A stretch of 64,000 nt of DNA from a phage. Shown here piece after piece: positions 6,552-56,156 of this stretch. Numbering within the stretch: position 1 is the stretch's first letter; each line of letters starts with the position of its first letter. The notes under the pieces were generated by a model. It saw only the letters and a program-made list of their open reading frames with translations, did no database searches and was not told where the DNA came from. Made by a program: the position numbers and the translations under genes. The stretch lies in sequence record PZ674595.1; one strand, written 5' to 3'.

Positions 6552-6824
6552 AAAGAATTATGGCGCTTGTTGAGGAAGTCACTCCTCTTACGCACTTTGT
6601 TTTGCCATGCCGGCAGTTAGCTTCTGCCTTTGACTATTCATGCGGCAACCCCGCATTTCGCCACAATGGGCAATTCACTTTTATGGAATAAACTGGCCGT
6701 TGTGTCGATTTAATTAGCATGGCCTTACCATGCTAATTTATTCAACTTGTACAATCCTACAAATCTATCCACTCAGGCTTACACCGTCTTCGTTATTGTA
6801 GAAATGAGGATCATCAGCGTTGAA

Positions 6825-7040
6825 TCAGCTTAGAGCAACGACATTTGCTGCTGCTGGGCCTTTAGCCCCATTCTCGATAGAGAATTCGACCTGCTGGCCT
6901 TCTTCCAAAGTGCGGAAATTATTACTCTGAATTGCCGAAAAATGTACAAAAACATCTTTACTGCCATCAGCAGGAGAAATAAAGCCAAAGCCTTTATCAG
7001 AGTTAAACCATTTTACTAAACCAGTCATTTTATTAGACAT
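6825..7040 (-). CDS. Cold-shock protein, CspA family (closest in my recollection to CspB/G/I)
   Basis: Translation [38 protein letters not shown]... with RNP motifs KGFGFI and VFVHF; ATG at 7040 is internal Met33 of the 103-aa track ORF, preceded by GAAGGT. Confidence 0.9.
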
Positions 7041-7369
7041 AGATATTACCTTCTTAATTTTGTGAGCCACATAGTGCGGCGAGAATTTGATCTGTATAGA
7101 TTGGGACTTACTTAGGCACTTAAGGAGGAGACTCACGAAGAAGGGAAATCAGAAGATAACACTGAACTGAGACTGCTTTACTAAAACTGCTTACATAAGG
7201 TCTGTCTTGCAAACCAACGATGCTATTAACGCATACCCCTTCTTTTCATGCAACCTTTATTTTTCAAAGATAACTAATTTTTGTCACCATTGGTTTAGTA
7301 AACGTTAACGAACCAGACGATGCCAGACACCTTTACAGAGAACAGATGCCCGCCAATTGGCGGGCATCA

Positions 7370-15136: not shown

Positions 15137-15184
15137 TAGCACCAACCACTGCGGTGAGTAGTCTGCTCACCGCATTCGTATCCA

Positions 15185-15625
15185 GCTCATTATCCACTGT
15201 AGTCAGTAACAAAACCTTCCTACATATCTGCTAACCACTGTAGCGAGTAGACAGCCTTTCATTCGCATCAAACAACCACTATGGTGAGTATTGGAGTGAG
15301 ATGTCCAGCGGGTATCCACTATGGTGAGTAAGCCTTTGCTGTTTTCAGTGGATATCCACTCGCCACAGTGGATACGCTCAAAGATGAGGGCGACAACAAC
15401 CACTATAGACAGTAAATTTTCCAAGATACCCAGTGACCACTAACCTCGCAGCCCTTGTTTCATCAGTGTTAGTGATCACTAACATTTAATTCAGTATTTG
15501 CATTCTACTGCCTACAGTGGTTATCAACAGATAACGATACTCACTATAGTGGATAGCGAATTACAGATATAAGTAAGGCTCACTACAGTGGATAGTGAGC
15601 CTTACTACTAACTACAGTGGTTGGG
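15185..15625. repeat. iteron array downstream of repA (P1 incA-like copy-control repeats)
   Basis: About ten copies of CCACTATAGTGG-type motifs (e.g. ATCCACTATGGTGAGTA, TCACTATAGTGGATAG, CTACAGTGGTT) in both orientations. Confidence 0.7.
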
Positions 15626-16681
15626 CTATTTGCGAGTCTTTGCCTTGCGCAACTCTTCGAGAAGCGCCAGTTCTTCTTTACTCAACATGACCATTTTGCC
15701 TTCTTTTTCGTCAGGCACAACGTCGATAATGTCATCTTGATTCTCATCTGGGAGGCTATATTCCGTCTCATCATTATCGATTTTTGTTGATATTTGTGCC
15801 TGGCGTAACTTTGGCCGCCTATAGTGGATGACGAAGTAGACCGAGTTTCCGCGCTTAACTTCCGTGTAATCGAGATATCCTATCTCTCGCAGCTGTTCCA
15901 TAGCCTTTCTTACCGTCGCATTCTGAGTAATAGTGCGACTTGTCAGATTAAGTCTGGCGCGTAAACGGGCTAGTGATATTGGTGCCGGATCAGGCGGCAA
16001 ACTTTCAATAAAAGTATAAAGCGCCTGAGCGGATTCTTTTCTTGAGAGTTCGTTTATAGCCCGGAGTTGCAGAAGAACCTTTTTGTCGAACTGGTAGAGT
16101 TCGAAAATCTTGGGATCTGCTTTCAGTTCGACCGTATCGTGCTTGACACTATATTTTGCCGTTTGCACAAGATGCGTTACGTAAAACTCATCAGAGCCTT
16201 TGCTACGGAACGAGATGGTATTTGTGGCAATACGGCTTAGCGAACTGTCCAGGCGTTTGCGTAACTTCGCTGATGACCTGGCGGTCGGAATGCCACACAG
16301 CCTTACAAACTCAACGAACGGCAACGTGACAGTATCGCCAACGACCTTGTGTTTGGCAAACGCGTGGATTATTCCCACCCACGTTTTAAAGTCGTTATCC
16401 ATATCAAGCCGAAGGCCAGAGATCCTTATGTCTTCGTACCCTTCGGCTTTTGCCAGAGACAGCTGTTTGAGTTCAGCAGAGGCATCCATAGAGACCATTT
16501 GCCCCTTTCTTCCTCTGGATGTCGATTTCAGCGTCGGAACGAAGAGGCCCAGACGCATCAAAGCAACAGGCTGAACAGTGTTATTAGTGTTAGGAACCAA
16601 CGTAACAACTTCGCCTGTCTTTTTATCTGTTTCTGAAAATGCTTCAACGATCGCTATGTTTTTATTGCCGTTTTCGCTCAT
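15626..16681 (-). CDS. repA: plasmid replication initiator, P1 RepA-like
   Basis: 351-aa ORF; [45 protein letters not shown] and [16 protein letters not shown] match P1 RepA as I recall it; flanked on both sides by iterons. Confidence 0.75.
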
Positions 16682-16689
16682 TCCAAATG

Positions 16690-17345
16690 TCTCTTGTTAT
16701 TCGACGGCTTTGGTGGCCTTTGCTGATTACAGTGGATAGTAGCACTCATCACAGCGGTTATCCTACCGTCTATAGTGGTTTTTCTCCTCTCTATAGTGGT
16801 TGCTTTGCTCCCTATAGTGGATTATTCGCTCTCTATAGTGGATATCGATCATGTCTGAAGGCAGATGGCACAACGGTTTGAGGTGGGCGGGGATCTTATT
16901 GGGTCTTTATGGGTCTCTTTGGTTCTCTTTGTGATCTGAATTACTGGATCGGGCCTGTGGATAAAAATCAGAGGATTTCAAGAACAGGTAACTCTACTCT
17001 TCTGTGGATATTTAAGGACATAAGAATCATGACTAAGAGTAGAGTTTAAAATATATCTATGTATATCAGTATGTTAATGAAGAATTAAGTCATTAAGTTA
17101 TCCATAAAAGACAATGTGCTCTACTCTCTACAGTGGATATATACAGCTCTCCAGAGTGGTTGTTTTACTCTTCATAGCGGTTATTCAGCTCTCTACAGAG
17201 GTTTCTTTGCTCTCCATAGTGGATGGCAACACCCTTTCAGACCAGTAACCGCAACGGCTAGAGGCGATCGGGGATCTCTTTGGATCTTCTATTTGATCTT
17301 ACTTGGGATCTCTTATTTGGATCTATCCAGTGGATAACTGGGATA
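16690..17345. other. origin of plasmid replication (oriV): two iteron arrays, DnaA boxes, GATC cluster, AT-rich stretch
   Basis: 21-22-bp direct repeats CTCTATAGTGG at 16740-16860 and 17116-17235; DnaA box TGTGGATAA at 16956-16964 and near-match at 17003-17011; six GATC within 17266-17323 as TGGATCT repeats; AT-rich 17040-17110; overlapping track ORFs 16639-16881 and 17116-17337 judged non-coding. Confidence 0.7.
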
Positions 17346-33468: not shown

Positions 33469-33479
33469 TAGATAAGTAC

Positions 33480-34000
33480 AAACTATTCATAAAGTGAATT
33501 GTAAGTGCTAAGATCTGATAGTTTCCAGTCGTAGACTGGAGACTCGACCTGATGGGTGGGGGTAAGCGTCACTGGCGTCAGGTTTAAAAAAGCTCACTAC
33601 CAGCGTAGAACCGGTGCCGTTTAGGTGTCGGGGAAGGGGGAACCAAAGTGAGCGGAGACAAGGGTCACTTTATGATTGTCGAGTCTGGGGTGTTTCGAGA
33701 GGTTGAATCCAGTACTCCCCTTCATAAAGTGTGGGAAGATCTCGGTTCTGGGGTGCTGTCATCCATAACTTCCCAAGTCTAAGCTGGCAGTAGACTTAGG
33801 CCATAACTTTTCAGGTTATGAAACGACCAGGTTGGTGAGGGATTTTTATACTCACCTCCCTGGGAGAGTATTACCTGAAAAGACAACCTCTCACTTCGTT
33901 CGAGGTGAACTTCACTCACTTCGTTCGTTCAGTTCAGGTTTATAAAAACCTGTTCTGGGAAGTAATTTGTTTATTTTAATAATTATTAACACGCACGCGT
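33480..34000. other. ORF-free structured region (candidate ncRNA or cis-acting site)
   Basis: About 520 bp without any ORF on either strand in a densely packed genome; several hairpins (CCAGTC-GTAGA-CTGG, GGTGAGGGATTTTTATACTCACC, AGGTTTATAAAAACCT); ends with alternating Pu/Py palindrome CACGCACGCGTGTGCGCACGCGCG. Confidence 0.4.
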
Positions 34001-34054
34001 GTGCGCACGCGCGAGGAAAAAAAAATCGGCGCGGCGCTTGATTCAGGAGTTTAT

Positions 34055-34648
34055 ATGACGACGAAGACACCAGCCCGATCGCAAGAAAAAACTCGCAAAA
34101 AAGCCAAAAACAAAAATTCTCCCCGCACCAATTCCACAACGCCTGTCGTAGAGTTCAATCCCCAGCTTAAAACCGTGAAAATCTTCAGTGATGGCTCTTG
34201 CCTTAAAAATCCGGGTGGCCCGGGCGGTTACGGTATAGTTCTCCAGTATCGTGGTGAGGAACGCGAGTTCTCAGATGGTTTTCATAGCACCACCAATAAC
34301 CGCATGGAGATGATGGGGGCACTTATTGGGCTGGAGCGTTTGAAATATCCATGCAACGTTATTTTGCACTCTGATAGCCAGTATCTGAAAAACGGCATGA
34401 CACAGTGGATGAAATGGTGGAAACGCAATGGATGGGTGACTTCTGACAAAAAACCGGTAAAGAATGTTGATCTGTGGAAGCGTCTGGATGAGGCTGCAAG
34501 TCGACATAATGTTCGCTGGAAGTGGGTTAAAGGTCACGCCGGGCATCGTGAAAATGAAATATGTGATCGACTCGCGAAGATCGCAGCTTTTTCCGCAGCA
34601 GATATGCCTCACAAGAAAGATATTGGTTTTGTTTACAACAAGAAGTAA
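34055..34648 (+). CDS. rnhA: ribonuclease HI with basic N-terminal extension
   Basis: [74 protein letters not shown] as in E. coli RNase HI; ATG at 34055 behind CAGGAG. Confidence 0.85.
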
Positions 34649-34793
34649 GTAAGTGTTTACCTATCATTTTAAATCATGTATCTTATCAGCGTCAGGATGA
34701 CAATGTGTCGGTAAGACACAGTTCCAGGATGGAACGAGAAAGGCGGCTGGCAATCGCCAGCCGCAACTCTTTCTGACACTGGATGGAGTCCAC

Positions 34794-35288
34794 ATGGCAC
34801 GTCAAACCTATTTCACTTCTGCAACTAAACGTCCTCGTTCACTACGTCAAATTTTGGCCGAATTATTTAGCGGTCGTGTTCTGTCACGTCTTGATGAACT
34901 AGAGACTGCCGTTCGGTTGCTGAATGAACGTTTAGATAAGCAAGCGTCAGTTGTTGCGAACGTGGGGGCGATTGTTACCTCTGGTTCTTCACGCGAAGCG
35001 AAAAGTACACGGCCTTTAGTGAAGGAGAAAAACAACAAGGACAGTTCGAATGGAAAATTTTCAAAGAAAGAGGCTGAAACCAATGGCCTACGTTCTCATT
35101 ATAGTTTCACTGGCGACGGTAGCCGTTCCAGCCGGCCAGAGCCTTTTGATGCCGGGTTCATCCATCACCACACCTCCGTCGACGACAATTACCACCACTC
35201 CAGTAGAGCGTCCTGTCACTCTGGATGGGATGACGGTGGATGCGATACCTCAAGTTCATCCAGTTACTCAGGATCATGCTGTGACTAA
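34794..35288 (+). CDS. hypothetical protein; 3' end uncertain (low-complexity C-terminus overlaps an alternative frame)
   Basis: 164-aa ORF; N-terminal ~100 aa look protein-like, C-terminal ~60 aa are Ser/His/Asp low-complexity; overlaps ORF 35050-35301, which has a TM segment. Confidence 0.3.
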   Translation: MARQTYFTSATKRPRSLRQILAELFSGRVLSRLDELETAVRLLNERLDKQASVVANVGAIVTSGSSREAKSTRPLVKEKNNKDSSNGKFSKKEAETNGLRSHYSFTGDGSRSSRPEPFDAGFIHHHTSVDDNYHHSSRASCHSGWDDGGCDTSSSSSYSGSCCD

Positions 35289-39684: not shown

Positions 39685-40389
39685 ATGAACAACCTCCAGT
39701 TAGAGCATTTTAACGTCACAGGCCATTCTGATTTTCCTTTCAAGTTTACATTGAAAGGTTATGCAGAGGATGCGGTAGGCCAGATCATTATTGATAAAGG
39801 CATCGTTAAGTTTGAGGGGAATTTTGATGAATCCGCGAAAACATTCATAGACTTCGTTGCCAAACGTTGGAGCGAGCAATGGAAAGACCTGGAAAAGCGC
39901 GCTAGTGAGTTTGATCGGTTCATGGATGCAATGGATACAGCAAAAGAGGCTCTTGCTGCCGGTACTCCGTTAGATCTGGAGTCACTTTTCAACGGCGAAG
40001 TGGCCTCTGCGATGTTCGCCACCATGTTCGCGGGTGAGTTCGTCCGCAGCGGTGCCAAAAATTACCTTGAGCTGGATTACAACGTCCCGGAAATTGGCGA
40101 TTTCGTCGTTACCATCCAACGCAAAGAAGGTAAGACGCCAGGTGAACGCGTCGCAGAACTTGAGGCTGTTGTGGATCAGCGTAACGGAGAGTGTGACCGT
40201 TTGATCAACGAGCTTCATGCACTTCGAGAAGAAAGAATATGCGCGGGTAGCAATACACGTAATGCAGCGGATATCTACTTCCAGTTAGTTGAGGAATGCC
40301 AGATTCCACCAGGCGGCTCTCTTGTCGATTACGTCAGACATTTAATGACGGAAGTTAACTCCAGCCATAAAGATGGTGAGGTGCGCTGA
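39685..40389 (+). CDS. hypothetical protein
   Basis: 234-aa ORF; RBS AAGAGAAAACAC; preceded by palindrome 39624-39645. Confidence 0.4.
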   Translation: MNNLQLEHFNVTGHSDFPFKFTLKGYAEDAVGQIIIDKGIVKFEGNFDESAKTFIDFVAKRWSEQWKDLEKRASEFDRFMDAMDTAKEALAAGTPLDLESLFNGEVASAMFATMFAGEFVRSGAKNYLELDYNVPEIGDFVVTIQRKEGKTPGERVAELEAVVDQRNGECDRLINELHALREERICAGSNTRNAADIYFQLVEECQIPPGGSLVDYVRHLMTEVNSSHKDGEVR

Positions 40390-40769
40390 TGTTTGGCATT
40401 GATGCACAGCGTATAGCAGCTTTTGCAAAAAGCCCTCTTGATAATCCCTTGTCTCGTAGTGAGCAAATGGAGCTGGCAAGGCTTTTTCTTCACATTCAAA
40501 AACAGGCAGACGTTTTCAATAACATGCCTGATCAACCTATTCTGGATGGTCACATCCAGATGGTCATTAACAGTCATGAGAAAGGCTGGGCTGCAATCGT
40601 CCCCTGCACAATTACATACAAGTTGGCGAAAGAGGTTCAAGAGTTTCGAAAAGTCAGCGTCGAATCAGAGTCTACCAAAGCCGCAATAAACACTCTTATT
40701 CGCATGGGGTTCACATGGGACGGTGGAGCTTACTGGCAAGCACCTCAACCCATTTTATACGGCAATTAG
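40389..40769 (+). CDS. hypothetical protein
   Basis: 126-aa ORF overlapping upstream stop. Confidence 0.4.
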   Translation: MFGIDAQRIAAFAKSPLDNPLSRSEQMELARLFLHIQKQADVFNNMPDQPILDGHIQMVINSHEKGWAAIVPCTITYKLAKEVQEFRKVSVESESTKAAINTLIRMGFTWDGGAYWQAPQPILYGN

Positions 40770-40907
40770 GCGCTACAAATCCTTCTGCATGAATAAATAA
40801 AGGCCATAACTTATGGCCTTAAATAAATTGTTTTCTACCTTTTCTTATTTGTGAAAATAAACCAGCACTTGGTAGTGCTTATGTAACAGCAAAGAAGAGA
40901 AAAACAC

Positions 40908-48149: not shown

Positions 48150-48719
48150 ATGGATGTGATGGAAACCCAGAACCAACAAACAAAACCTCTGAATAACATT
48201 TATGCGTGGATTCTAGCGTTCATGCCTTTCTTCTTTGGAGTATCGCCGGAAGAGTATACCAATTACGCTATTATAATTGGGGGTGTAACTACCATCGGTT
48301 TGTTAGTAGCTGACAGAATGGCTCTATCGGAGTCTGGCTGTGAACCACCTTCAATTCTATGGGGGGTATTCCTCCTGCCTGTCTATCTCTGGAAGCGCGC
48401 GACTATTACAAAAGGCAGCAGAGTGCCATTTATCATAATCGTTGCGTCGCTGGCTTGGATTATCTTCATCGGCATCCCACACAAGGACGAGGTTGCTCTT
48501 GAAGAAGCAGCCTGCCCTCTCGTGACAACTATTCTGAAAGAGAATAACGGTTCGACTGCACCAAAATGTATGAAGGTGACAATAGAGGACAAGGTGACGG
48601 ATAAGTTCTATAGAGCAACGGCTACACTAGACAATGGTAATGACATTAACATTACTCTGGAACTTACCGGCGACAGGAACTTCTACGTCCGTGTTCCAAA
48701 TGTTTATCTGAACAACTAA
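48150..48719 (+). CDS. membrane protein (AT-rich gene)
   Basis: Three predicted N-terminal TM segments; low G+C. Confidence 0.4.
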   Translation: MDVMETQNQQTKPLNNIYAWILAFMPFFFGVSPEEYTNYAIIIGGVTTIGLLVADRMALSESGCEPPSILWGVFLLPVYLWKRATITKGSRVPFIIIVASLAWIIFIGIPHKDEVALEEAACPLVTTILKENNGSTAPKCMKVTIEDKVTDKFYRATATLDNGNDINITLELTGDRNFYVRVPNVYLNN

Positions 48720-48839
48720 CGGTTGCAACTTATTGATAATGGCGGTCACAATTTGATTCTTTTCTATAAGAACCCGTTGATCGCCACTACTCCCCTCCCA
48801 TACCAGCAATCACATCATTAAATATCAATAGGTTATGGT

Positions 48840-49700
48840 TGTTTATACAAATAAGAAAACAACTAAATAACAGATCAACGAAACGTCAACGCTTTCACCC
48901 GATTTGGTCTAAAAAATTGACGTTTTCACACATCACTTCTTATACCCGTAACTCTACGCAGCAGACAGCGCCACAGCGTCCAATTTTCACCACAGACGAC
49001 CCAACACACTACCAACAAAAACACACGCTCAAAATCGCTCCCGTTGCGTTACACAACCATATAAACAACTTATTTTCAGGCATAACAAAACAACTAAATA
49101 ACACACATGCCATTTCCAAAAACAACCAACCTCTTTATGGCAGGCTACCGAAAAGACCCACCTCTTCTCCCCAGTCTACCGAAAAGACCCACCTCTTCTC
49201 CCCAGGCTACCGGACAACCAACCTAACTTTCACAGGCAATCCGAAAACATTCATACGCGCGATACCCACGACACGCCATTCCCCAAACAGCGAAGAAACA
49301 CCAGAATCACTGAAACCCCAACGAAGCCTGTAACCGCAAGGATTCTCTCAATCCCAAAAGACACGAAACAGAACAATCACGGGAAACGCCATTACCCAAT
49401 ACACGAATAACTACAAAAGCCTTTCACACACTCCAGACAAACAACTCAAACACAACAACGAAAGGAATCGCCCACCTGCCATTACTCCATACACGGAGAA
49501 GAACAATCACCAAAACGACGAGAACACCCCATAGAAGAACCACCGCAAAACGAACGAAACCACATACACCGACAGAGAAAACAACACACCCAATTCACCA
49601 ACAGAAATAGTCGCCGTATAGAACATTCTGGAAGGAGTGAGCATTAACGCCTATAGAGAGGTTGAGACAGATAAAACACAACATGTATAGCGAAGAAGCC
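48840..49700. repeat. strand-asymmetric C/A-rich, G-poor tract with tandem 29-bp repeats
   Basis: Plus strand almost devoid of G over ~860 bp; perfect tandem copies of CTACCGAAAAGACCCACCTCTTCTCCCCA at 49155-49183 and 49186-49214 plus a degenerate third; track ORF 48839-49333 judged a composition artefact. Confidence 0.6.
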
Positions 49701-49810
49701 AGGTATGTATAAGTGGGGAGAGAAGGAGGGGTGTCGCCTCCTTTTTCGTATTTATTCAACTCCTGATTTTACCCCCCCGTAACACCCCTACGGTCAGCCT
49801 TCGGTCCATA

Positions 49811-49945
49811 CAGGGAAAAGGCTGCATCCCGCTACAGAAACGGCTGGGTTGCCTTCGGGGAACGGCTGGAGGTTTTCAGGGAAACGGTCGAGTTGCCTGT
49901 GTGGATTTCGGGAAAAGGCTCGATGCCGGTTCAGGAACGGTGGCG
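49811..49945. repeat. array of six ~14-bp direct repeats, consensus CRGGGAAAMGGCYG, spaced 21-24 bp
   Basis: Copies starting near 49811, 49835, 49856, 49877, 49909, 49932. Confidence 0.6.
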
Positions 49946-50324
49946 TACCGGTATAGCGTGAGGGAGAGTTGCGGCTGTCCACCTGTAATGTGCGGGAAGA
50001 AGAGAGGCGCTCACGTGCAGGCGAACTTACTTACCGCTGGATTCCCTCTGAATGCCCAGCTACAGCGTAATTGTGCCAGACAGTCAGCGGGTCACAATCG
50101 ATTTCAGTAGGTTTTCGGGGAGAGGATTATTCTGCCCACCAGCCCCGCGGCGCGCGTAGAGCAGAATATCGTAAATACTGGCTCTCGTGTCGTTCCCGGA
50201 TATTCACTGCCAAGCCTGGCTTTCCCGACATAAAATCCTTTTTCGCCTTTGTCTTATTTCGATAATAACACCAACAAGTAAACAACATATTTAGACGTTA
50301 TAGAAACGAAGTGAGGATGAAGAG

Positions 50325-50543: not shown

Positions 50544-50548
50544 GAGTG

Positions 50549-50573
50549 AGGCCACCAGCACGGTGGCTTTTGT
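50549..50573 (+). terminator. terminator hairpin
   Basis: GCCACC-AGCAC-GGTGGC followed by TTTTGT. Confidence 0.6.
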
Positions 50574-50681
50574 CGCTATTAACCTCCGGGCAGCGCAGCA
50601 CCGTAACGATATACTTTGTGGCCGTTTTCTTACTGGTATTGTTTACGCAATTCAGAAAACAACATGTTTAAGGATTGCGTT

Positions 50682-51011: not shown

Positions 51012-51165
51012 TCACAATCAAAGCCAGCATTGCTGGCTTAACTTAATCTGTAGCCGCAGGGAAGAACCTGCATATCGCTCATGCGCCTGATCAATATGCT
51101 TTGTAGCCGTTTTCTTACTGGTATTATTTACGCCATTGAGAAAACAAGTTGTTTACGGAGTTGTG

Positions 51166-52637: not shown

Positions 52638-52826
52638 TTATTAAGGCCACCAGCGTTGGTGGTCTTAAATAACTTTTAATAACCGAAGGTTAGTTTGAAA
52701 CCTGGCTATCAACTTCCAGAACCTTTCTTGTGTATTCAGCCTGTATTAACTTCTTTTATGCCTTATCTACACTGCGATAATTACACCAACAAGAAAACAA
52801 CATGTTTACGCAGTGAGGATATGCTC

Positions 52827-53108: not shown

Positions 53109-53159
53109 AGATTAAGGCCACCAATGCTGGTGGCCTTAAATGACCATCCTGTTTCCCGC

Positions 53160-53240
53160 AGGCTAAAAACACCAACCTCTTACCTCCAGGCAACCGACAA
53201 ACCCACCTGTTCCCGTCCGGCTACCGCAACTTTCCACTTT
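53160..53240. repeat. three ~30-bp C-rich direct repeats related to the 49155-49245 repeats
   Basis: GCAGGCTAAAAACACCAACCTCTTACCTC / CAGGCAACCGACAAACCCACCTGTTCCCG / CGGCTACCGCAACTTTCCAC. Confidence 0.5.
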
Positions 53241-53312
53241 GACGCCTTATTCGTACAACGATAATTAACACCAACAAGAAAACAATTTGTTATTTACGAT
53301 AAGGAATTAATC

Positions 53313-53795
53313 ATGAATTTTATCGCTACTGTAAACGCACCCGCACATGGCAATATCGCTGTAACGTTCTCTGACATTGAAAAACGAGTACTTGGTGCAT
53401 GGCGCGACAATGAGACGGTAGAACTGTCAGCACAAGAAAAATGCATTATTGCACGCGACATCATTGGCAATCGTCGTTACTCGCGGGTATTTGAGAAAGC
53501 GTATGTGGTAAATTCTGGGTTCGGAACGTTCGTCTTTCCGGTGCGCTCAGGGCGATTCTGCCAGTCCAAGCTGATTGAGTTCGCTACGCAGATTTCTGTC
53601 TGGATTAAAACTCAATCGTCGTTCAAATTTTCCGACGATGAAGCAGTATCGCAGGGGATGCGGATCGCCAACAATGCGATTAAATGCAAAAACATTACGT
53701 ATACCGCTGGCGTTGACACATGGAAACTGTTTTGCGCTAACTTTATGCTGAATGTATACGCAAGCAACCGCATCCACATCCTTGATGGCGTGTAA
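53313..53795 (+). CDS. hypothetical protein
   Basis: 160-aa ORF; RBS AAGGAA; promoter motif GAAAACAATTTGTTA 21 nt upstream. Confidence 0.4.
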   Translation: MNFIATVNAPAHGNIAVTFSDIEKRVLGAWRDNETVELSAQEKCIIARDIIGNRRYSRVFEKAYVVNSGFGTFVFPVRSGRFCQSKLIEFATQISVWIKTQSSFKFSDDEAVSQGMRIANNAIKCKNITYTAGVDTWKLFCANFMLNVYASNRIHILDGV

Positions 53796-53835
53796 CTGAG
53801 AAGAGGGCCAGAAACGGCCCTTTCTCTATAGCCAC

Positions 53836-53930
53836 CAGCTGCCGCAGGGAAATTTTCAGAAACGGCGAGGAACGTATTCATGAGCCGACGGGAAACGGCC
53901 AGGATTTTTTCGGGAAACGGCTGCATTCGC
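53836..53930. repeat. second array of CRGGGAAAMGGCYG-type direct repeats
   Basis: CAGGGAAATTTTCAG, CAGAAACGGCGAGG, CGGGAAACGGCCAGG, CGGGAAACGGCTGC. Confidence 0.5.
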
Positions 53931-54382
53931 CTTTATGTAGAAAAAACATCGGGAAGCTGGTGGAATCCAACCAGCGGTTGTCGGACAGGCGAGCGGGGAA
54001 AATTATGATGACTTTCGTCGCCTGAGACATCCAGATTTCTTTCGTAGCGTAATCACATACGTGATTAAGTGGTGTGATTATGTGAAAAATCACGCGCACA
54101 TAATACGCGAGCGGATACAGAACAACACAAAATGCCGATCCGCGCCGACAAATAAACGCGGATCACATAGCAAGAATAAAAGCCAATGATTAGCCATACG
54201 TTATAGCGCAATATAACGCATTTTAAGCGCGTTAATGTGCTAAGTAATGGGTATGTACTGGTAAGGATATAAAAGCGCGTCTATGGCGTTATTTTGGCGC
54301 TTATTTTTATGTTGTTGGAGTGAGTTAAAGACAATAAAAAACGCGCCAATGATGGCGCGCTATGGTGGGAGTATTGGAAACG

Positions 54383-54418
54383 AAAAAAGCGCCCATAGTG
54401 GGCGCTCGATTTTATTTG
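54383..54418. terminator. bidirectional terminator hairpin (also one of a pair of 24-bp direct repeats)
   Basis: AAAAAAGCGCCCATAGTGGGCGCTCGATTTTATTTG; near-identical hairpin at 54658-54685. Confidence 0.65.
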
Positions 54419-54642
54419 TGTAAACTGATTTTAAATCCCATTTCTACAAACGCTTTTAACATTAAAAATATATCAGCGTCGTTGATTCCAATATCCGAAC
54501 GCTCAATATCATTTAATAAATCAATTTTACGCGTTGTTTCATCGATAAACTCGACTGAGCGCCCAGCGTAACCAGCGATCCCAGCGATGCGATTAACAAA
54601 ATATTCATTGCGCACGTTAACGCCAGCGATAAGAACAAACAT
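54412..54642 (-). CDS. hypothetical small protein bracketed by 24-bp direct-repeat hairpins
   Basis: 76-aa ORF; RBS AAGGAG 7 nt before ATG; terminator immediately after stop. Confidence 0.45.
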   Translation of the reverse strand: MFVLIAGVNVRNEYFVNRIAGIAGYAGRSVEFIDETTRKIDLLNDIERSDIGINDADIFLMLKAFVEMGFKISLHK

Positions 54643-55634: not shown

Positions 55635-56156
55635 TTAAAATGGAAGGATTCGTTCAACCCAATCGAAGAAAACAAGTATTTTTCTGCCGTCTTCTAACTT
55701 AAGAGTGACCTGACAAGCATCAACGCCTCTTGACACCCCTTCTATTTCACGACCGTCTGCCATGTAGACCCTTATAGATTGGTCGTTTTGATAAGCCTTG
55801 CGACATATCGCAAAAAAGTCACGGCGTGATGGCTGATTGTCAACATAGTCTGGATGTATTGTTAGCCTACCTTTGAACTCGCGAGCAATGCCATCGATTA
55901 CACCTGATTCAATTGTGCTAATGCGCTCAAGTGGGAGTCTTATACGATTTTCTTTATCATATGGAAGCGGGCATAAATCTAGCTTATTGCGGGAAGGCAT
56001 TGTCCCCTGAACGTACATGCAAAACACCTGACCGTCTTCAAGCGTGACTCTTACAGGAATGTTGTTCTTCCGCCAGAACATAAGTATGTTTTCAGCATGT
56101 TCGTAGTCTCGCGGCCAGACTTCAGCCGGTATGCCGTAGGTGATGTCTTTAACCAT
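55635..56156 (-). CDS. hypothetical protein with internal sequence duplication (AT-rich block)
   Basis: 173 aa; two similar segments (VRVTLEDGQVFCMYVQG and IRVYMADGREIEG...VTLKLEDGRKILVFF). Confidence 0.45.
   Translation of the reverse strand: MVKDITYGIPAEVWPRDYEHAENILMFWRKNNIPVRVTLEDGQVFCMYVQGTMPSRNKLDLCPLPYDKENRIRLPLERISTIESGVIDGIAREFKGRLTIHPDYVDNQPSRRDFFAICRKAYQNDQSIRVYMADGREIEGVSRGVDACQVTLKLEDGRKILVFFDWVERILPF

Follow-up and report, generated by a model that had tools for sequence, protein, structure and literature searches.

What might be the role of 1.6 kb of DNA without any coding sequence (48720–50324; RefSeq gene table) in a phage that also lives as a plasmid, and why should its two kinds of repeat recur, in the same order, a few kilobases downstream? 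The block lies within the 64 000-nt stretch of DNA analysed here (the window), in whose numbering all positions are given. From comparisons of sequence, the window is a portion of a 110.9-kb phage-plasmid of the SSU5 type with an IncFIB-type RepA, because positions 48700–50000 are 100% identical to the Escherichia coli plasmid pM-64-1161 (NZ_MT773673.1) and 93–97% identical to the Escherichia phages Cyrano, PhiR41_1 and CMS-2020a, and because Salmonella phage SSU5 itself matches a short core (49460–49620 alone, by megablast). This copy of the phage-plasmid carries blaCTX-M-64. Such elements are common in clinical Enterobacteriaceae, other examples being pHCM2 of Salmonella Typhi and Cyrano of E. 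coli LF82, and have to choose between plasmid maintenance and lytic growth. The block is flanked on one side by a variable gene slot and on the other by a run of small early genes, each with a promoter and terminator of its own; together with its partner 4 kb downstream, it exceeds in size any other non-coding DNA conserved near the regulatory region. It is a real and conserved feature outside all known families; both loci are unannotated in every record examined, and none of the papers searched describes 48720–50324.

Our preferred answer, offered tentatively and with rather less than even confidence, is that the two loci form a non-coding control module conserved throughout the phage family, in which DNA-binding arrays bracket two early units; one of these would be a Rho-prone tract that is not translated and is off in lysogeny. 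The parts of this arrangement are the following:

48750–49620 (about), +: A+C-rich, G- and T-poor non-coding tract (composition, alignments)
49119–49246, +: C-unit array 1, four copies with a period of 30–31 bp (repeat search, Tandem Repeats Finder (TRF), alignments)
49720–49750, +: terminator-like hairpin GAGAAGGAGG-GGTGTCG-CCTCCTTTTT (terminator scan)
49811–49945, +: G-unit array 1, six copies of (T/C)(C/A)(G/A)GGGAAA(A/C)GG(C/T) (direct reading, repeat search)
53137–53230, +: C-unit array 2, three copies, between the terminator of a 93-aa gene and the promoter of a 160-aa gene
53238–53293, +: promoter of the 160-aa gene (TTGACG, 53238–53243; GATAAT, 53260–53265) and an operator-like motif (53276–53293) (sequence reading; conserved in relatives)
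53313–53795, +: gene for a 160-aa protein between the arrays, function unassigned
53798–53827, +: terminator hairpin of the 160-aa gene, with a loop, CAGAAACGGCC, that resembles a G unit (sequence reading, relatives)
53832–53963, +: G-unit array 2, four copies (53846–53921; cores at 53847, 53859, 53890 and 53912), within a pair of Chi sites (repeat search, relatives)

The C unit can be written as ACC(C/A)ACCTCTT-N5-CAGGCTACCG-N5. Perfect tandem 29-mers had been described here; the repeat is in fact longer, TRF giving a period of 31 (49141–49212, 2.3 copies, 95% matches) and an exact 30-mer, CTACCGAAAAGACCCACCTCTTCTCCCCAG, occurring twice (49145–49174 and 49176–49205). A looser family takes in four copies at locus 1 and three at locus 2, and the two C arrays align with one another (75% over 88 nt, E = 4.5e-11). 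The preliminary description was right about the six GGGAAA(A/C)GG direct repeats at 49811–49945, some two helical turns apart, whose cores lie at 49813, 49836, 49857, 49879, 49910 and 49931 (spacings of 23, 21, 22, 31 and 21 bp), and right also that both kinds of repeat have a second instance flanking the gene at 53313–53795, as C units at 53137–53230 and G units at 53846–53921. Clusters of both motif families are found at these two loci only in the whole 110.9-kb plasmid. Separated by 4.1–4.3 kb, the loci have the same order of parts, namely C array, one transcription unit, hairpin terminator and G array, with about 565 bp between the C and G arrays at locus 1 and about 606 bp at locus 2. The C array of locus 2 lies upstream of the promoter of the 160-aa gene and the G array begins about 20 nt past its terminator; both are thus outside the transcription unit, which points to a role at the level of DNA.

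How well has this arrangement been kept? By sensitive blastn the 48720–50324 region turned up in 839 records of PLSDB, spread over Escherichia, Klebsiella, Enterobacter, Salmonella, Citrobacter and Cronobacter, mostly at 66–75% identity and at similar length, and ten divergent versions could be aligned over the full 1.6 kb. Conservation is blocky, being concentrated in a palindrome at 48740–48786, a block at 48845–48955, a palindrome at about 49060, the C units, a set of GCCATTAC modules, the segment 49460–49620, the hairpin and the G units. Among the ten divergent relatives, G units are spaced by 22, 31, 44 or 66 bp and C units by 29–31 bp, and differences in copy number consist of whole 31-nt or 22-nt units (PhiR41_1 lacks one whole 31-nt C unit, and whole 22-nt G units are absent from PhiR41_1 and from a Citrobacter plasmid). 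At locus 2, for which 56 distinct versions were compared, the GGGAAACGG cores are essentially invariant, and in the outlier L089 GGGGAAAGGC has been kept at 22-bp spacing while the spacers have changed. Conservation in related elements had been named beforehand as a test of function, and the arrays are indeed kept, with their spacing, in ten relatives. The presence of the region in 839 records, the invariant cores, the fixed spacing, the insertion or deletion of whole units and the restriction to two loci all favour arrays that bind protein as DNA. The earlier suggestion of protein-binding sites is supported in its general form by spacing, whole-unit changes and cores, whereas each of the specific roles that accompanied it (partition centromere, origin, packaging site) fails on adjacency: the ParA-like gene is about 40 kb away, the putative terS and terL are 9.4 kb beyond locus 2 and the RepA iterons are elsewhere.

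The tract, within which C array 1 lies, is distinguished by its base composition. From 48840 to 49620 the plus strand contains 39.6% A, 32.4% C, 12.2% G and 15.9% T. Its min(G, C) fraction of 0.116, against a window mean of 0.213 (standard deviation (sd) 0.022), makes it the most extreme 700-nt stretch of the window; A+C reaches 77% in 300-nt segments (window mean 50%, sd 4.2%), and the C/G ratio is 1.8–7.3 across nine consecutive 78-nt segments (about 700 nt). The strand asymmetry reported in the preliminary description is thus borne out, and only the phrase 'nearly G-free' was too strong, G being halved and T depleted too. The relatives all hold about 66–72% A+C over about 750 nt in spite of 30–38% divergent positions.

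Does the tract encode a protein? The one open reading frame (ORF) listed for its first part (48839–49333) had been put down to composition, and it is spurious. Substitutions over the tract have no three-base periodicity (e.g. 53/50/57); its long open frames, which exist because a strand poor in T and G has few stop codons, vary in frame and position between relatives, none being conserved; and tblastn of eight neighbouring proteins against the tract revealed no similarity. A protein-coding tract is ruled out by these three results. Nor does its RNA seem to be a structured one, as had been proposed in the alternative. The predicted minimum free energy (MFE) of the plus-strand RNA is −124 kcal/mol for 811 nt (−0.15 kcal/mol per nt), compared with −217 kcal/mol for the minus strand, so the plus-strand RNA is nearly unstructured, and RNAalifold found no covariation support (covariation term +1.2). 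The exception is the terminal hairpin (here 49720–49746), which a comparison of 30 non-redundant relatives does support: 86% of cells are paired, compared with 54–65% once the pairing has been shifted a few columns along the alignment, and one pair is AU in 10, GU in 10 and GC in 8; the U-tract behind it is canonical in the window's lineage alone. Known RNA families, including the C4 antisense RNA, gave no Rfam covariance-model match in the feature (from 46 to 56 kb, with E up to 1, the sole match was a chance eukaryotic one outside it), and neither tRNA nor tmRNA was found. The only Rfam match above gathering score in the whole window is a cspA thermoregulator at 6800–7218 (−; 186 bits), upstream of a cspG-like cold-shock gene.

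What the tract does resemble, on composition, is a site for the loading of Rho: it has C above G, without stable structure, over far more than the at least 70 nt of a rut site, and it contains no conserved ORF, so that the rut-like property attributed to it at the outset is upheld. Motifs for other RNA-binding proteins are not enriched. GGA occurs five times (4.0 expected, with counts equally near expectation in the relatives) and (ARN)4 runs once (1.06 expected), which rules out a CsrA sponge and a sponge for the distal face of Hfq, respectively. As for triplex (H-) DNA, the mirror repeat is merely 10 nt long and is not conserved.

When would such an RNA be made? Phage Cyrano has an ORF, CYRAN_103, that covers the beginning of the tract, and in a published re-analysis of RNA-seq from LF82 lysogens this ORF was at the zero-read floor in culture and close to it in macrophages, while the upstream gene had 57 fragments per kilobase per million (FPKM) and the downstream small genes 12–58 FPKM (PMC9928086). 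In the plasmid (lysogenic) state, then, the tract is silent. On its 5' side a position-weight scan revealed no sigma-70 promoter that is conserved, but only consensus-like −35 hexamers with a poor −10.

Taken together, these observations lead us to the following proposal. A phage-encoded protein would bind the 31-bp C units and the 22-bp G units with their GGGAAA(A/C)GG core and, because C array, unit, terminator and G array follow in the same order at both loci, the arrays would work in pairs to regulate the DNA between them or to set its boundaries, for example through cooperative binding, looping or a roadblock. The bracketed units would be the non-coding tract at locus 1 and the 160-aa gene at locus 2. 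The tract RNA (about 0.8–0.9 kb, unfolded, with C exceeding G, and untranslated) would be an ideal substrate for Rho loading and would end at or before the hairpin; carrying orphan copies of an early operator, it would be made only in lytic development, since it is switched off in the plasmid state. Protein binding to the DNA, lytic-cycle transcription and the part played by Rho are all three inferred from the evidence above. Several points weigh against this proposal. No protein has been identified as the binder of the arrays, and spacing of 22 or 31 bp could merely reflect tandem duplication of units of that size. The tract has no good conserved sigma-70 promoter on its 5' side that would support its transcription in any state, and the U-tract behind the hairpin is weak in most relatives. 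The blocks of 90–97% identity within the tract exceed the needs of a simple rut site or spacer. Finally, purine-rich segments complementary to the C units, described below, hint at RNA–RNA pairing or at inverted sites, and our model leaves them unused.

Within and beside the tract at locus 1, further parts can be distinguished:

48733–48786, +: conserved block A (79–87% column identity, though the upstream gene varies among relatives)
48851–48872, +: first copy of the 22-mer ATAAGAAAACAACTAAATAACA (repeat family D18; invariant in the alignment)
48883–48946, +: inverted repeat ACGTCAA (48883–48889)/TTGACGT (48917–48923) and what follows it (invariant columns)
49062–49103, +: orphan operator-like palindrome TAAACAACTTATTTT (TAAACAAGTTGTTTT in relatives) and second copy of the 22-mer (49082–49103) (alignments)
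49275–49506, +: three GCCATTAC(C/T)CCA(T/A)ACACGGAGAAGAAC modules, at 49275, 49388 and 49478 (family D7, alignments)
49460–49620, +: most conserved core of the tract (75–97% identity to eight divergent relatives)
49647–49730, +: two purine-rich segments, 49647–49668 and 49714–49730 (inverted repeats I17 and I18)

Block A contains a −35-like TTGATA (48733–48738; TTGACA in relatives) and an imperfect inverted repeat, TGGCGGTCA (48740–48748)/TGATCGCCA (48778–48786), and the predicted RNA fold of 48725–48960 has z = −2.8. The ACGTCAA/TTGACGT repeat leads into TTGACG-N18-TATACC, which the position-weight scan suggests as a candidate weak or activator-dependent promoter; CTTATAC (48939–48945), close by, could pair with GTATAAG (49707–49713), with one compensatory event in the Klebsiella group. 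The GCCATTAC modules number up to six in relatives. The purine-rich segments are complements, or inverted copies, of the C-unit core and form long-range helices with it in the MFE fold. The duplexes (−25 to −37 kcal/mol) are more stable than those of shuffled sequences in no lineage but that of the window (z = −2.5 to −4.3), and the extensions of pairing between C units and segments vary by lineage; the segments could be inverted binding sites or RNA partners.

The first copy of the 22-mer includes, at 48853–48863, a motif of operator-like appearance, AAGAAAACAAC, that is found throughout the phage. This motif, also written AAGAAAACAA-N-TTGTTTA, occurs 20 times in the window (3.5 expected), plus-strand sites including 13584, 25315, 35548, 36277, 47446, 50276, 50653, 51138, 52791 and 53276. 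It is always on the sense strand, about 10 nt past the −10 element and 15–30 nt before the start codon of small genes, between the −10 and the Shine–Dalgarno sequence in many of them; about 15 genes have it in front. It could be an operator at the level of either DNA or RNA. The tract has three copies, where its composition predicts 0.24 (P ~0.002), one of them a full copy with no gene downstream. No gene lies behind the orphan palindrome TAAACAACTTATTTT. What might recognize such a motif in RNA? Some 6 kb downstream, at 55635–56156 (−), is a gene for a FljA-family protein (PF03614, E = 5e-81) with two Sm/Hfq-like domains, which is expressed in lysogens. FljA proteins are reported to prevent the translation of fliC mRNA (PMC2652032). 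Among the papers searched, we found none linking FljA to the Sm fold. The Salmonella fliC leader and the phage motif have in common CAAGTTGT, an A/C-rich 5' flank and an AAGGA Shine–Dalgarno sequence. Given the motif, the FljA homologue, the likeness to the fliC leader and the expression in lysogens, an RNA-level repressor with many targets is plausible, and the FljA-like protein would be a possible RNA partner of the tract. It is conceivable, as a long shot, that the tract is the RNA half of a post-transcriptional switch between lysis and lysogeny: the FljA-like protein would silence about 15 early leaders through a fliC-leader-like operator (A/C-rich flank, CAAGTTGT, Shine–Dalgarno sequence), and a deliberately unstructured lytic-phase RNA of about 0.9 kb would titrate it, or recruit Rho, on induction, its timing being set by the arrays. 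The Hfq-fold FljA homologue and the fliC-leader-like motif make a global translational repressor directly testable.

Could the two loci instead make up a two-part lytic replication origin or enhancer, at which a phage initiator binds both kinds of repeat and loops out some 4 kb, the transcription of the tract activating or priming replication? A lytic origin must exist somewhere in the element, since it encodes its own DnaE, DnaB-like and UvsW-like helicases and a ligase. The G units, at spacings of 21–23 or 31 bp, have the form of iterons (at least three direct repeats of 17–22 bp at whole-turn spacing), their 22-bp spacing being comparable to the 21 bp of the element's true RepA iterons; the arrangement is duplicated 4.1–4.3 kb apart; and locus 2 lies in a convergent gap with many hairpins and short repeats. 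Against these attractions, no initiator (Rep) gene adjoins the arrays or lies between them (RepA is encoded at 15.6–16.7 kb), the flanking genes are all of unassigned function, and over 40 kb separates the arrays from the module for the DnaB-like helicase and ligase. A DnaA box is absent from locus 1, and locus 2 has a single weak match that is not conserved; outside promoter regions neither locus has an AT-rich stretch reaching 75%, and no IHF site is conserved at either. The tract has 45% G+C, and its plus-strand RNA would be C/A-rich, which does not favour a stable R-loop. An R-loop origin served from the minus strand was rejected, a reading of the sequence having found no conserved promoter there. 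We consider such an origin rather unlikely, although live. The alternative that the tract acts as RNA, also live and also on the unlikely side, would make it an unstructured lytic non-coding RNA that serves as a decoy or sponge (best for the FljA-like protein, with Rho or S1 as alternatives), or else a leader whose repeats pair in the manner of the P4 CI, P1 C4 and N15 CA immunity RNAs. It draws on the strand-specific base bias kept despite high divergence, the enrichment of the orphan motif, the reported block to fliC mRNA translation by FljA proteins (PMC2652032), the fliC-leader likeness before about 15 genes with the FljA-like gene on in lysogens, and the complementarity of C units to two purine-rich 3' segments, with extensions that differ by lineage. 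It has to contend with the lack of a transcript in the lysogen and of a good promoter, with GGA and (ARN)n runs no more frequent than composition predicts, with merely two or three operator-like copies in the tract, with duplexes mostly no more stable than those of shuffled purine-rich sequence, with nil covariation by RNAalifold and no C4-like Rfam match, and with the second copies of both arrays, which are outside a transcription unit.

We give less weight to a role in packaging, to one in partition and to a neutral relic. If the G units are small-terminase sites in a cosB- or pac-like recognition region, three points favour it: the G core GGAAACG/CGTTTCC is the same 7-mer as the core of R1–R3 in lambda cosB, the sites are in arrays, and locus 2 has convergent genes on its two sides, a place that would suit the termini of a linear genome. 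However, the putative terS (210 aa, phrog_867), with terL behind it, begins only at about 63369, at a distance of 9.4 kb from locus 2 and of 13.4 kb from locus 1, and its product has no similarity to lambda Nu1 (BLASTP E = 9.8) and no sequence relative in PDB. It would be unusual for a pac or cos site to be present twice within 4 kb, the shared 7-mer may be due to chance, and the ends of IMG/VR contigs cluster at about 47315, outside the arrays, so that we regard the packaging role as improbable. The contig ends were not taken for physical genome ends either, about 47315 being a boundary of variable gene cassettes. Yet another explanation is that the two loci are a decayed duplication without present function, kept only as a link between mobile gene cassettes; in its favour, the region follows a variable gene slot, and metagenome assemblies break nearby, at about 47315. 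Cores that are invariant, and spacing that is fixed, across six genera, an extreme base bias maintained at 30–38% divergence, and length preserved in an element that otherwise has very little non-coding DNA make a relic very improbable. Least credible of all is that the loci serve the plasmid state as a partition centromere or as a site of incompatibility. Direct-repeat arrays are typical of type Ib and type II centromeres, and two proteins with ParB N-terminal domains are encoded at about 60.0–61.3 kb; but centromeres normally adjoin their par operon, and the ParA-like ATPase and its small partner (record positions 33990–35017) are about 40 kb away, the two ParB-N proteins are encoded among phage genes beside an ABC-type ATPase rather than ParA, and the architecture of a P1-type parS was not seen. 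The probabilities that we attach to the control module and to these five alternatives sum to a little over four-fifths, the rest being allowed for explanations not considered. The pair of blocks is a concrete, clonable target in the search for the lytic origin, for a protein that regulates or sets boundaries, or for a switch that acts on RNA.

The surroundings of the two loci deserve some further description. Pfam and PADLOC gave no significant family for any of the eight flanking proteins, which fall in PHROGs of unknown function, and the 160-aa protein is confined to this phage family and has no recognizable fold. A type III toxin–antitoxin system of the ToxIN kind was considered and rejected, PADLOC and Pfam revealing no ToxN/AbiQ-type toxin in the 160-aa protein and its neighbours, and the repeats being upstream of the promoter, outside the transcript. 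Two of the small genes between the loci are preceded by a second type of promoter, GGCCGTTTTCTTAC-TGGTATT(G/A)T (50614–50645 and 51099–51130), whose upstream element, GCCGTTTTC, is the reverse complement of the G unit GAAAACGGC; the same layout is found in a Cronobacter relative. G array 2 is enclosed by an inverted pair of Chi sites, CCACCAGC (53832–53839, nearly invariant among relatives) and GCTGGTGG (53956–53963). Chi (GCTGGTGG) occurs 20 times in the 64 kb, on both strands (1.4 expected), and many copies are inverted pairs in terminator-like hairpins of the form GGCCACCAGC-N-GCTGGTGGCC (e.g. 50546–50570, 52641–52668 and 53112–53139), so that RecBCD would meet an active Chi from either side. 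The gap between convergent genes at locus 2 is 615 bp long and includes, at 53960–54420, tandem terminators for both strands and 10–12-bp repeats (TATAACGCAA and TGGCGTTATTTT, each present twice). An invariant sequence in this interval, GTAATGGGTATGTAC, includes in inverted form the CCATTAC core of the tract modules, and a weak promoter-like site at 53982–54009 (+) could drive a small RNA.

Farther off, more than 15 copies of the RepA iteron CTCTCTATAGTGGATA, at 21-bp spacing, lie on either side of repA (15141–15622 and 16719–17245); this region (15141–17245) is the plasmid origin and its copy control, and the arrays at loci 1 and 2, being different in sequence and remote from 15.1–17.3 kb, are not RepA iterons. 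The contig ends at about 47315 belong to four IMG/VR contigs, all from a single metagenome, and it is probably here that a hypervariable region of cassettes begins, upstream of the tract. A second stretch without a listed coding sequence, at about 33470–34800, has an unlisted ORF that looks RNase HI-like (its translation was read by eye), preceded by about 450 nt of G+C-rich DNA with possible secondary structure; the PLSDB gene table is known to be incomplete. In LF82 lysogens, CYRAN_43, a 'hypothetical protein' gene adjoining the integrase gene and outside the window (40268–40822 of the L014/Cyrano record), reaches about 7000 FPKM, 723 times the local background; it could be an accessory gene with very high expression, or its product could be a non-coding RNA.

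How, finally, does the pair of loci compare with systems already known? Like sponge RNAs (CrcZ for Hfq/Crc, CsrB for CsrA), the tract is long and non-coding, repeats certain short motifs and ends in a hairpin, and a translational repressor of the Sm/Hfq-like kind is encoded nearby, the motif of its presumed target genes recurring in the tract; unlike them, it has only two or three copies of the motif and no enrichment of GGA or (ARN)n, and it is not expressed in the one state sampled, the lysogen. In the immunity systems of P4 (CI), P1 (C4) and N15 (CA), leader repeats pair with a complementary segment and so cause early termination. The tract is likewise an untranslated, leader-type region of a phage-plasmid, with repeats complementary to a segment of the same region, but the complementarity is mostly a matter of composition, Rfam detects no C4, and no antirepressor operon is recognizable downstream. 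Lambda cosB, at which the terminase small subunit Nu1 binds R1–R3, shares the core CGTTTCC/GGAAACG with the G units, which differ in forming two arrays away from the terminase genes, in accompanying a putative terS unrelated to Nu1, and in having no identified cosN-like site. Iteron arrays (incC and incA of P1, the RepFIB repeats, ori and crr of P4) are like those described here in that direct repeats of about 20 bp, set two helical turns apart, make up two clusters with a few kilobases between them, so bracketing other DNA, a layout that the element's own 21-bp RepA iterons, flanking repA, also have; iteron origins are distinguished by an adjoining initiator gene, DnaA boxes and an AT-rich unwinding element, whereas the present arrays comprise two repeat families in fixed order round a transcription unit, with a sequence unrelated to the RepA iterons. 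With the rut sites of Rho-dependent terminators (e.g. lambda tR1), the tract has in common a C-rich, G-poor, unstructured and untranslated sense strand, and it differs from them in being some 10 times longer than needed and in its blocks of 90–97% identity and internal families of repeats.

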